Assembly (NCBI RefSeq): GCF_016903815.1
Contig: NZ_CP069973.1
Origin: Escherichia coli
GTDB lineage: Bacteria; Pseudomonadota; Gammaproteobacteria; Enterobacterales; Enterobacteriaceae
DNA: 64,000 bases
Strand: one strand, 5' to 3'
The first letter of the stretch is position 1, and each line of letters opens with the position of its first letter. The position numbers and the translations under genes were made by a program. The notes under the pieces are model-generated. The model was not told where the DNA came from. It worked only from the letters and a program-made list of their open reading frames with translations, and ran no database searches. This document shows, in pieces, positions 62,455 through 63,629 of the stretch.

Positions 62455-62493
62455 ACTCCTGTGAAAGCGGCATAGTGCCGCTTTCACAGGAGT
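62455..62493. terminator. Perfect 17-bp inverted repeat (actcctgtgaaagcggc-atagt-gccgctttcacaggagt) between convergent genes; likely bidirectional terminator
   Basis: Read directly in the sequence; the right arm ends at the stop codon of the minus-strand esterase gene. Confidence 0.6.
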
Positions 62494-63413
62494 TACCTTC
62501 CCGCTCTCCAGGCCACATCCCGCAGCGCCGATCGCGCAGCCTCACTGATACCACCTAACTGAAAAAATCCGTGGATAACGCCAAGGTAGCGTTGGCAGGT
62601 GCATTGCACTCCTTGCCCTGTCATGCGGTGATACAACGCTTCACCTTCATCGCAAAGTGGGTCGTATTCAGCGGTAATGATATGTACAGGTGGCAAGCCA
62701 TTGAAATCATCGCGCCAAAGAGGGCTGGCTTCAGGATGCCTGCGTTCAATGCCTGGCAGATACATCTCAAAGCCGCTCAGTAAAGTGTCGCGTGTGATGA
62801 TGTAATCGTGACCATTGCGTATGTAGCTTTCGAAATGCGCAGTCGCATCAAGCATGGGATAAATTAAGATGAGTTGTGCCGGTTGCCACTCGCCAGCACG
62901 CTTTAATCGCAAAGCAGTTACCAGCGCCAGATGTCCGCCCGCACTGTCACCGGCAAGAGTTATCCGTTGTTTATCAACGCCGAGTCGTTCGGCGTGTTGC
63001 CAGACTAATTCTGCACCTCGTTGCGCATCATCATGGGCGGCGGGGAAAGTCTGTTCCGGTGCCAGCCGATACTGGACGGCAATAACCCGACATTGCCCGT
63101 AATAGGCTAACTGGCGCAGCTGGTTGTCGTGAGTTGCGAACCCGCCGCTAACAAAACAGCCACCGTAGTAATAAATTATCGTCGGGAGTAATGTCGGGGC
63201 ATTCAGCGGTGACACTATTCGTAAGATCATCCCTTCAAGTTCGATAGTCTGAATATCTACCCGCGTTTCTGTCTCACCCGCAAGGACAGCGCTGGCGATA
63301 TAGCCCTCCCTGCGCTGCGCAATACTTTGTTGACGCGATGAGGGGCGACCCGCAGCGATAAACTCTTCGACTAACTCTGCAATTCCTTTTTCCAGTGCCA
63401 TAGTAGAACTCAT
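62493..63413 (-). CDS. Alpha/beta-hydrolase fold esterase/lipase (Aes-like, HSL family)
   Basis: Translation contains the oxyanion-hole motif (YYYGGCF), the nucleophile elbow GDSAGG, and Asp/His candidates (DPLCDEG, GVIHGF). The start is ambiguous: ATG at 63413 (MSSTMALEKG...) or GTG at 63476 (track). Confidence 0.75.
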   Translation of the reverse strand: MSSTMALEKGIAELVEEFIAAGRPSSRQQSIAQRREGYIASAVLAGETETRVDIQTIELEGMILRIVSPLNAPTLLPTIIYYYGGCFVSGGFATHDNQLRQLAYYGQCRVIAVQYRLAPEQTFPAAHDDAQRGAELVWQHAERLGVDKQRITLAGDSAGGHLALVTALRLKRAGEWQPAQLILIYPMLDATAHFESYIRNGHDYIITRDTLLSGFEMYLPGIERRHPEASPLWRDDFNGLPPVHIITAEYDPLCDEGEALYHRMTGQGVQCTCQRYLGVIHGFFQLGGISEAARSALRDVAWRAGR

Positions 63414-63629
63414 TTTGCTGTATGAATGTACAGTTTTATACACCCGTTTTTGCTGGATGGATACAGGGAAATTCACGGGCGTGAAAAATCTGGAAAGCGC
63501 CTCGCAAATGTAAAGACAAACCCGGCAGAGACGTGGTTTTGCTGGAGCACTATCAGTAAGCTAGTGGTTTCAAGGGTACGTCAATGACGTACAAAAAGGA
63601 TTGTTACTCTAAGCCAATGGCGTATAATT

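Follow-up and report, generated by a model that had tools for sequence, protein, structure and literature searches.

The closest described relatives of the gene considered here are from Salmonella. STM14_4846 ('nlhH', 'putative acetyl esterase'), encoded on the minus strand, is induced 15.1-fold by nalidixic acid in a manner dependent on LexA and RecA, has one LexA box with a heterology index (HI) of 7.63 at 13 bp from its ATG, and lies 217 bp from the divergent 312-bp gene STM14_4847 ('higB-2'), which is 8-fold SOS-induced and has the LexA box in common with the esterase gene (Merida-Floriano, Rowe and Casadesus 2021, PMC8072944). STMUK_4015, likewise a 'putative acetyl esterase', is up about 3-fold in an SOS-constitutive dam mutant, alongside uvrA, polB and ruvA (PMC4213855). 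The locus compared here is an esterase gene near the end of a 64,000-nucleotide stretch of Escherichia coli DNA (contig NZ_CP069973.1 of assembly GCF_016903815.1), which is referred to in full as the window. The segment at 60000-64000 of the window is chromosomal and is 100% identical to that of E. coli strain 7/2 and many other clinical isolates. With a probability of roughly 70%, the gene encodes an enzyme from the family of hormone-sensitive lipase (HSL) that is repressed by LexA as a member of the SOS response, is an ancestral occupant of the fabY/fdhE locus and was lost by deletion in about half of E. coli.

The esterase open reading frame (ORF) is uninterrupted on the minus strand, with its terminus at 62493 in the ORF listing of the window. 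An earlier reading of this DNA, made from its letters without database searches (the sequence-only reading), had extended the ORF from 62493 to 63476, with GTG 63476 or ATG 63413 as possible starts; its 3' end is correct, its 5' end is over-extended and neither start holds. The RefSeq start of WP_001306651.1 is ATG 63401, and all of more than 110 orthologues (302-313 residues) begin with MALEKGI at the equivalent codon. The O26 and SC480 alleles have ATA in place of ATG 63413; 5' of 63401, the frame is shifted in ATCC 25922, through a 1-nt insertion, and closed in Salmonella and Enterobacter, where stop codons interrupt it; and GTG 63476 is upstream of the conserved promoter block formed by the -10 element and the LexA box. 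No coding potential was detected 5' of the ATG by comparison of alleles and orthologues, as the frame is not kept. Because of the orthologue N-termini, the broken upstream frame and the position of the promoter block, the gene is delimited to 62493-63401 and ATG 63401 is taken as its true start. GTG 63476 and ATG 63413 are ruled out on the same grounds, together with the ATA variants.

A predicted LexA operator, which the sequence-only reading passed over, is located upstream of this start codon. The CTGT-N8-ACAG core occurs once in the window, within about 40 nt before the esterase start. Since one such match per window is expected by chance (mean 0.67 in 64 kb, with at least one in 54 of 100 shuffles), the argument for LexA is carried by position and conservation. 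The box AACTGTACATTCATACAGCA is identical at 17 of 20 positions to the sulA operator of K-12 (NC_000913.3). Its HI of about 4.7 is mid-range for known operators, compared to 10.9 for the next best site of the window, values which are approximate, coming from a matrix reconstructed out of known E. coli operators. The upstream regions of E. coli, Salmonella, Enterobacter, Citrobacter, Leclercia, Lelliottia, Superficieibacter and one further enterobacterium were aligned, and in these 8 genera TATAA and CTG(T/G)-N8-ACAG are kept at -31 to -34, with divergence of the surrounding intergenic DNA. The box of Superficieibacter is CTGG-N8-ACAG and that of the other aligned lineages is CTGT-N8-ACAG. Distant homologues (53% and 44% identity), which reside in other genomic contexts, have no LexA box upstream. 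The box is kept in Enterobacter and Leclercia, where the toxin-antitoxin pair that is divergent from the esterase in this window is absent; thus, the box belongs to the esterase. That it is instead a property of the divergent pair is ruled out, as it lies 31 nt from the esterase ATG in loci that lack the pair.

LexA control in E. coli is inferred from this conserved operator. In the proposed mechanism, LexA would bind a strong operator that spans the start region and lies immediately 3' of the TATAAA -10 element, and would repress transcription, which would initiate inside the LexA box; as part of the SOS regulon, the esterase would be produced chiefly once DNA has been damaged. Alternatively, the gene could encode an ordinary esterase that is constitutive or otherwise regulated and stands outside the E. 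coli SOS response, with a palindrome that is non-functional or bound by another factor. The chance expectation given above is compatible with this alternative, as is a second conserved block further upstream (63489-63508), which would point to other regulation; however, the box is positioned exactly at the promoter and start region, resembles the sulA operator, is held at a fixed distance in 8 genera and, in Salmonella, goes with the LexA/RecA-dependent 15-fold induction. An esterase outside the SOS response is, thus, considered unlikely.

The esterase is taken as the orthologue of Salmonella STM4032/STM14_4846 'nlhH', as set by annotation, gene order, sizes and locus-tag arithmetic. Dam methylation was considered as the cause of the up-regulation in the dam mutant and was set aside: at one non-Typhimurium Salmonella orthologue locus that was read directly, the 91 nt that precede the ATG contain no GATC and, thus, SOS induction is the simpler cause.

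The family of the encoded protein is indicated by several lines of evidence. The Pfam profile PF07859 (Abhydrolase_3) is matched with 229.4 bits (cut-off 25; E 5e-68) over profile positions 1-209 of 210. A PDB sequence search matched about 100 solved esterases of family IV/HSL, the best of which are PestE (2YH2), Est8 (4YPV), EH1AB1 (6I8D) and LAE6 (5JD4), with E values of 1e-48 to 1e-49 and 34-37% identity; in these alignments, the GDSAGG, DPLxDEG and HGF motifs of the esterase align with the same motifs of the solved enzymes. An AlphaFold2 model, for which a 79-sequence alignment was used as for the column conservation below, has a predicted local distance difference test score (pLDDT) of 96.6 and a predicted template-modelling score (pTM) of 0.94. 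By Foldseek, the model superimposes on 4YPV, 5JD4 and 6I8D with template-modelling (TM) scores of 0.92-0.94 and root-mean-square deviations of 2.0-2.3 A, revealing an alpha/beta-hydrolase core with an N-terminal helical cap; the TM range for Est8, LAE6, EH1AB1 and PestE together is 0.89-0.94. Residues G151, G155, D247 and H277 are invariant, with conservation of at least 90% for G80, G81, D152, S153 and A154. The N-terminus, inspected directly, has no hydrophobic signal sequence and, hence, the enzyme is predicted to be cytoplasmic. The protein is assigned, by homology and by the model, as a soluble cytoplasmic carboxylesterase of the HSL family (bacterial lipolytic family IV) with predicted activity and with an intact Ser153-Asp247-His277 triad. 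The earlier proposal of an HSL-family carboxylesterase is in agreement with Pfam, the PDB alignments, the AlphaFold2 superposition and the triad, and the motifs on which it was based (YYYGGCF, GDSAGG and downstream Asp/His) are all present, including DPLCDEG and HGFF. As the triad is found in the alignment with HSL-family esterases, the family assignment stands.

By analogy with the family, Ser153 on the GDSAGG elbow would be activated by His277, itself oriented by Asp247, and would attack the ester carbonyl. For the resulting tetrahedral oxyanion, hydrogen-bonding backbone NH groups would be supplied by Gly80, by Gly81 and probably by Ala154. The N-terminal helical cap would form the substrate pocket, for which the family usually favours short acyl chains.

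Assignment within the family is less specific. None of the NCBIfam equivalog cut-offs is reached by the esterase, with scores of 139.3 bits for Aes (NF007547, cut-off 389), 235.1 for LipP1 (NF058653, cut-off 350) and 162.5 for chloramphenicol hydrolase (NF033149, cut-off 500). Orthology to Aes is ruled out by the missed NF007547 cut-off and by an identity of 31% to K-12 Aes; the LipP1, chloramphenicol hydrolase and GESAG/GTSAG/GCSAG subfamily identities are likewise ruled out, all being under the NCBIfam cut-off. Thus, the description 'Aes-like paralog' in the sequence-only reading is valid for the shared family and fold but not for a closer relationship, as the protein is nearer to Est8, LAE6, EH1AB1 and PestE. 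A search of the literature on WP_001306651, YGGG variants and E. coli nlhH returned nothing relevant.

The oxyanion loop departs from the family motif. YGGC is found in 6/6 E. coli protein clusters and 4/4 E. coli alleles examined, and HGGC in 114/114 of the non-E. coli orthologues retrieved; one CAC-to-TAC transition accounts for the His to Tyr change. In the 79-sequence alignment, conservation of the His column is at least 90%, and His is present in 125 of the 130 motif-bearing representatives at 50% identity. The hallmark His of the HGG motif is absent from the E. coli esterase, which is an atypical member with its homology-based family membership unaffected, and the Gly-Gly of the motif (G80, G81) is retained. 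The YYYGGCF motif had been read earlier as the oxyanion hole; its position does align with this loop, but the motif is non-canonical (YGGC in E. coli compared to the HGGG consensus) and the His-to-Tyr change had been overlooked. Four E. coli alleles (97.2-100% DNA identity) are all intact, with pairwise ratios of nonsynonymous to synonymous substitution rates (dN/dS) of 0.09-0.22. Purifying selection on the esterase in E. coli after the His79-to-Tyr change is clear. From these ratios, we read Tyr79 as a change that is probably tolerated or may tune specificity, and not as an inactivation.

The distribution of the gene was counted in 5426 complete E. coli genomes. The esterase is present in 2673, absent in 2753 and partial in 37; two of the matches are on plasmids, and some genomes have it in two places. 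The esterase together with a low-GC insert that adjoins it in this window (at least 80% of 60000-64000) is found in 329 of the genomes and the left end of this insert in 3072. The esterase is convergent with fabY (yiiD), at a distance of 8-63 bp, in Salmonella, Enterobacter hormaechei, Citrobacter farmeri, Lelliottia, E. coli O26, ATCC 25922 and SC480, and the convergent arrangement holds for most of the E. coli with the gene. This synteny argues that the esterase is ancestral at the fabY/fdhE locus of the Enterobacteriaceae and is not an island gene. The term 'accessory', applied earlier to the carboxylesterase, is misleading for a gene that is syntenic across the Enterobacteriaceae and lost by about half of E. 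coli, including K-12. In K-12, the first ~480 bp of the insert (60095-60574) are kept and are followed by a 4.3-kb deletion, which extends from window position 60575 past the window end and removes most of the 617-residue ORF of the insert, the esterase and the higB-like/nadS pair. The order of events was, thus: (i) an ancestral fabY/esterase arrangement, (ii) an insertion, which gave the state of this window (about 6% of genomes), and (iii) a deletion of the K-12 type (about half). The His79-to-Tyr change would have been fixed in E. coli and the gene kept under purifying selection, with the deletion later in about half of the species, including K-12. The absence of the esterase from the classic lists of E. 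coli SOS genes is explained by its deletion from K-12.

A different history is one of decay, in which the His79-to-Tyr change damaged the oxyanion loop and the E. coli esterase, as a catalytically crippled relic, was no longer needed and disappeared by deletion from half of the species. The near-invariance of the His in the family, the restriction of Tyr to E. coli and the 2753 genomes that lack the gene (with 37 partial) are as expected of a relic. By contrast, the four alleles are intact with low dN/dS, the K-12-type loss is one 4.3-kb deletion that includes neighbouring genes and is not gene-specific decay, and His103 of E. coli Aes, the equivalent of His79, is reportedly not critical for activity. 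In addition, it is backbone amides that hold the oxyanion, those of the HGG Gly residues, both retained here, and that of the Ala after the catalytic Ser (PMC5070724; PMC3963902). A relic is, thus, very unlikely, and a maintained SOS esterase is preferred.

Several points, to which the approximate HI matrix belongs, weigh against the reading of this gene as a LexA-repressed SOS esterase. LexA binding and induction by DNA damage in E. coli are predicted from sequence, with induction measured in Salmonella only, and reports of direct LexA binding at this promoter by footprint, electrophoretic mobility shift assay or chromatin immunoprecipitation were not found for E. coli or Salmonella. A sigma-70 promoter was not called at the esterase by the promoter scan, which demands a T at hexamer position 6, and the -35 element is weak. 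STM14_4846, STM4032 and STMUK_4015 were equated with each other and with the orthologue not by sequence alignment but from the wording of annotations, the order and sizes of genes, and locus-tag arithmetic, and the published primers for the nlhH gfp fusion have no match of at least 80% in the Salmonella loci compared, which are non-Typhimurium and are without sehCD. At the level of the enzyme, biochemistry of this esterase or of STM4032 was not found in the searchable literature, and with Tyr79 in place of a near-invariant His and Cys82 where a third Gly is usual, the enzyme could depart from the family norm in activity or specificity. Finally, its loss from about half of E. coli indicates that the esterase is dispensable.

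Table 1. Positions of the esterase gene, its active-site and promoter elements, and adjoining features in the window.
Feature	Position	Strand	Remarks
Esterase coding sequence	62493..63401	-	302 residues plus stop; RefSeq WP_001306651.1 'alpha/beta hydrolase'; from ORF, RefSeq, Pfam, orthologues and AlphaFold2 model
LexA (SOS) box AACTGTACATTCATACAGCA, predicted	63416..63435	-	Core CTGT-N8-ACAG at 63418-63433; 16 nt 5' of ATG 63401
Candidate -10 element TATAAA	63435..63440	-	Abuts the LexA box; TATAA invariant in 10 sequences from 8 genera; putative -10 role
Oxyanion-loop codons Y77-Y78-Y79-G80-G81-C82	63156..63173	-	Family motif Y-x-H-G-G-G; Tyr79 codon TAC at 63165-63167
Nucleophile elbow G151-D152-S153 of GDSAGG (151-156)	62943..62951	-	Ser153 at 62943-62945; aligned with GDSAG of PestE, Est8 and EH1AB1 and with Aes Ser165
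Catalytic Asp247 in DPLCDEG	62661..62663	-	Invariant column; aligned with DPLRDEG of solved esterases
Catalytic His277 in IHGFF	62571..62573	-	Invariant column; aligned with HGF of solved esterases
Conserved block TTTGCGAG-GCG-CTTTCCAGA (whole: TTTGCGAGGCGCTTTCCAGA)	63489..63508	-	20 bp; about 48 nt 5' of the esterase -10
CX5R ORF, 617 residues	60471-62324	+	Uninterrupted in the window; complete in about 329 of 5426 genomes
Perfect 19-bp hairpin	62454..62494		Overlaps the esterase stop codon, between the convergent genes; part of the insert

The insert that adjoins the esterase is a 2396-bp segment (60095-62490) of about 36% GC, which stands in place of the 61-bp spacer between fabY and the esterase. 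Homology with the ancestral arrangement ends at the stop codon of fabY and begins again at 62491, within that of the esterase. The contrast in GC content between the esterase and its neighbour, observed earlier, is confirmed: the esterase has 52-54% GC compared to 35-37% across most of the 617-residue CX5R ORF of the insert. This ORF has no match in Pfam, NCBIfam or the PDB sequence search. In RefSeq, it is divided between two entries, a 'hypothetical protein, pseudo, missing C-terminus' and a 304-residue 'transposase' (WP_077634137.1), which looks like an annotation artefact. The CX5R ORF is absent beside the orthologues in 7/7 of the other enterobacterial loci fetched (six genera and one further enterobacterium).

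The esterase and the CX5R ORF, as a putative phosphoinositide phosphatase, might form a lipid-modifying pair, an idea for which the adjacency and convergent orientation speak in this window only. However, the CX5R ORF is carried on a low-GC segment that took the place of a short spacer, accompanies the esterase in 329 of 2673 genomes and is missing from the 7 other loci; the two genes are convergent and, so, not co-transcribed; and the fabY/esterase gap takes different insertions in different genera. A lipid-modifying pair is, on these grounds, barely credible. Because the insertion replaced the ancestral spacer and the CX5R ORF is present in few of the esterase-bearing genomes, the adjacency is coincidental, secondary and non-functional. 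A functional link is effectively refuted by distribution, GC content and insertion boundaries, and of the earlier suggestion that the placement of the two genes is meaningful, it is the proviso ('may be coincidental') that was borne out.

The hairpin between the convergent genes has a minimum free energy of -35.1 kcal/mol (z -8.1). It is not an intrinsic terminator, as neither strand has a U-tract and the terminator scan made no call. The ancestral spacer carries a different hairpin, CTGAAAAGGTTTTC...GAAAACCTTTTCAG. The fabY/esterase gap is a recurrent insertion site, which is occupied by a HigB/helix-turn-helix (HTH) pair in Superficieibacter, a gene for an Ail/Lom outer-membrane protein in Leclercia, an 89-residue ORF in one further enterobacterium and the CX5R ORF in this window. 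In S. Typhimurium, this gap is occupied by the sehCD toxin-antitoxin pair (PMC3868539, a retracted paper that is used here for its gene map only). On the far side of the insert, fabY (59105-60094) encodes 329 residues from the first ATG, as in K-12, and is annotated with 313 residues (start at 59153) by the Prokaryotic Genome Annotation Pipeline in strain 7/2 and others; the start is, thus, inconsistent.

The second conserved block lies upstream of the esterase promoter. Within it, 8 genera have TTTGCGAG and CTTTC.AGA without variation, between diverged flanks, giving the general form TTTGCGAG-N3-CTTTC(C/A)AGA. The block is non-coding, as the frame is not kept, and an Rfam scan of 62300-64000 gave no match at E values up to 1. 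A second regulator may bind there. An opposite-strand sigma-54 promoter was considered and rejected: although its GG-N10-GC spacing is suitable, the GG is replaced by TG in E. hormaechei, and such a promoter would have nothing to transcribe. Nor was a convincing fit found by eye to the consensus sequences of a marbox or of CpxR, sigma-32 or sigma-E sites.

Divergent from the esterase is a 103-residue HigB/RelE-like ORF (63630-63941, plus strand) with a weak Pfam RelE match, followed by nadS, an HTH antitoxin gene, from 63942 to the window end; the name nadS is from the RefSeq annotation of an identical strain. This pair corresponds to Salmonella sehAB/'higB-2' (STM14_4847). Salmonella and C. 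farmeri have it, whereas Enterobacter and Leclercia lack it at this position. At 63576-63592 is a perfect palindrome, GTACGTCA-T-TGACGTAC, just upstream of a promoter-like site (TTGTTA-16-TATAAT, 63601-63628). The palindrome core TACGTCAATG(A/G)CGTA is kept in Salmonella, C. farmeri and Superficieibacter, and the palindrome is probably the antitoxin operator. The promoter-like site ends 1 nt before the annotated ATG 63630, a geometry that suggests a leaderless transcript or a mis-called start.

That the gene is annotated as an alpha/beta hydrolase and that its SOS control is published for Salmonella are already known; the advance is, thus, incremental. It was in K-12, from which the esterase is deleted, that the classic SOS regulon of E. 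coli was defined, yet about half of E. coli (including the B2 reference ATCC 25922 and an O26 Shiga toxin-producing strain) and most of the Enterobacteriaceae examined carry it with predicted LexA control. Its substrate, once identified, could reveal a small-molecule side of the SOS response that is distinct from DNA repair. One role, which is speculative and decidedly unlikely as it stands, would be a chemical-defence arm of the SOS response, in which LexA-controlled hydrolysis disposes of an ester-containing genotoxin or a reactive ester intermediate. Candidate substrates would include: (i) N-acetoxy-arylamines from the cell's own O-acetyltransferase, (ii) diazo-esters such as azaserine, and (iii) an ester-bearing bacteriocin or antibiotic. 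Such a role would be analogous to the protection against gyrase poisons by SbmC/GyrI, the E. coli His79-to-Tyr and clade-specific Gly82-to-Cys changes would represent a retuned substrate specificity, and K-12, and hence most SOS research, would be without this function through the 4.3-kb deletion. Separately from any such role, a natural His-to-Tyr variant of the HGG motif under purifying selection offers a ready test of the role of the 'invariant' His in family IV esterases.

Compared with known systems, the esterase resembles Est8 (4YPV), LAE6 (5JD4), EH1AB1 (6I8D) and Pyrobaculum PestE (2YH2/3ZWQ) in its cap-plus-core architecture and catalytic motifs. These enzymes differ in that they are metagenomic or archaeal, have HGGG and have no genomic context or regulation in common with it. 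The gene name 'nlhH' is presumably an automatic transfer by similarity from NlhH/LipH (Rv1399c) of Mycobacterium tuberculosis, which we take to be an HSL-family carboxylesterase with a GDSAG motif and not an orthologue. E. coli Aes (YbaC, b0476; PDB 4KRX/4KRY) is alike in Pfam family, fold, GDSAG elbow and a triad that aligns residue for residue, and unlike in its limited identity (31%) and in having HGGGF where the esterase has YGGCF. Aes binds MalT, and nothing suggests that this esterase does likewise; we know of no LexA box at aes. Salmonella nlhH differs from the E. coli gene in its canonical HGGC compared to YGGC and, in S. Typhimurium, in the sehCD pair between the esterase and yiiD, where this window has the 617-residue low-GC ORF. 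It is like the E. coli gene in its locus between fabY (yiiD) and fdhE, its divergence from a 312-bp higB-like gene, a protein identity of about 76-77% (Salmonella orthologues retrieved) and the arrangement of a -10 element with a LexA box 13-16 nt before the ATG.

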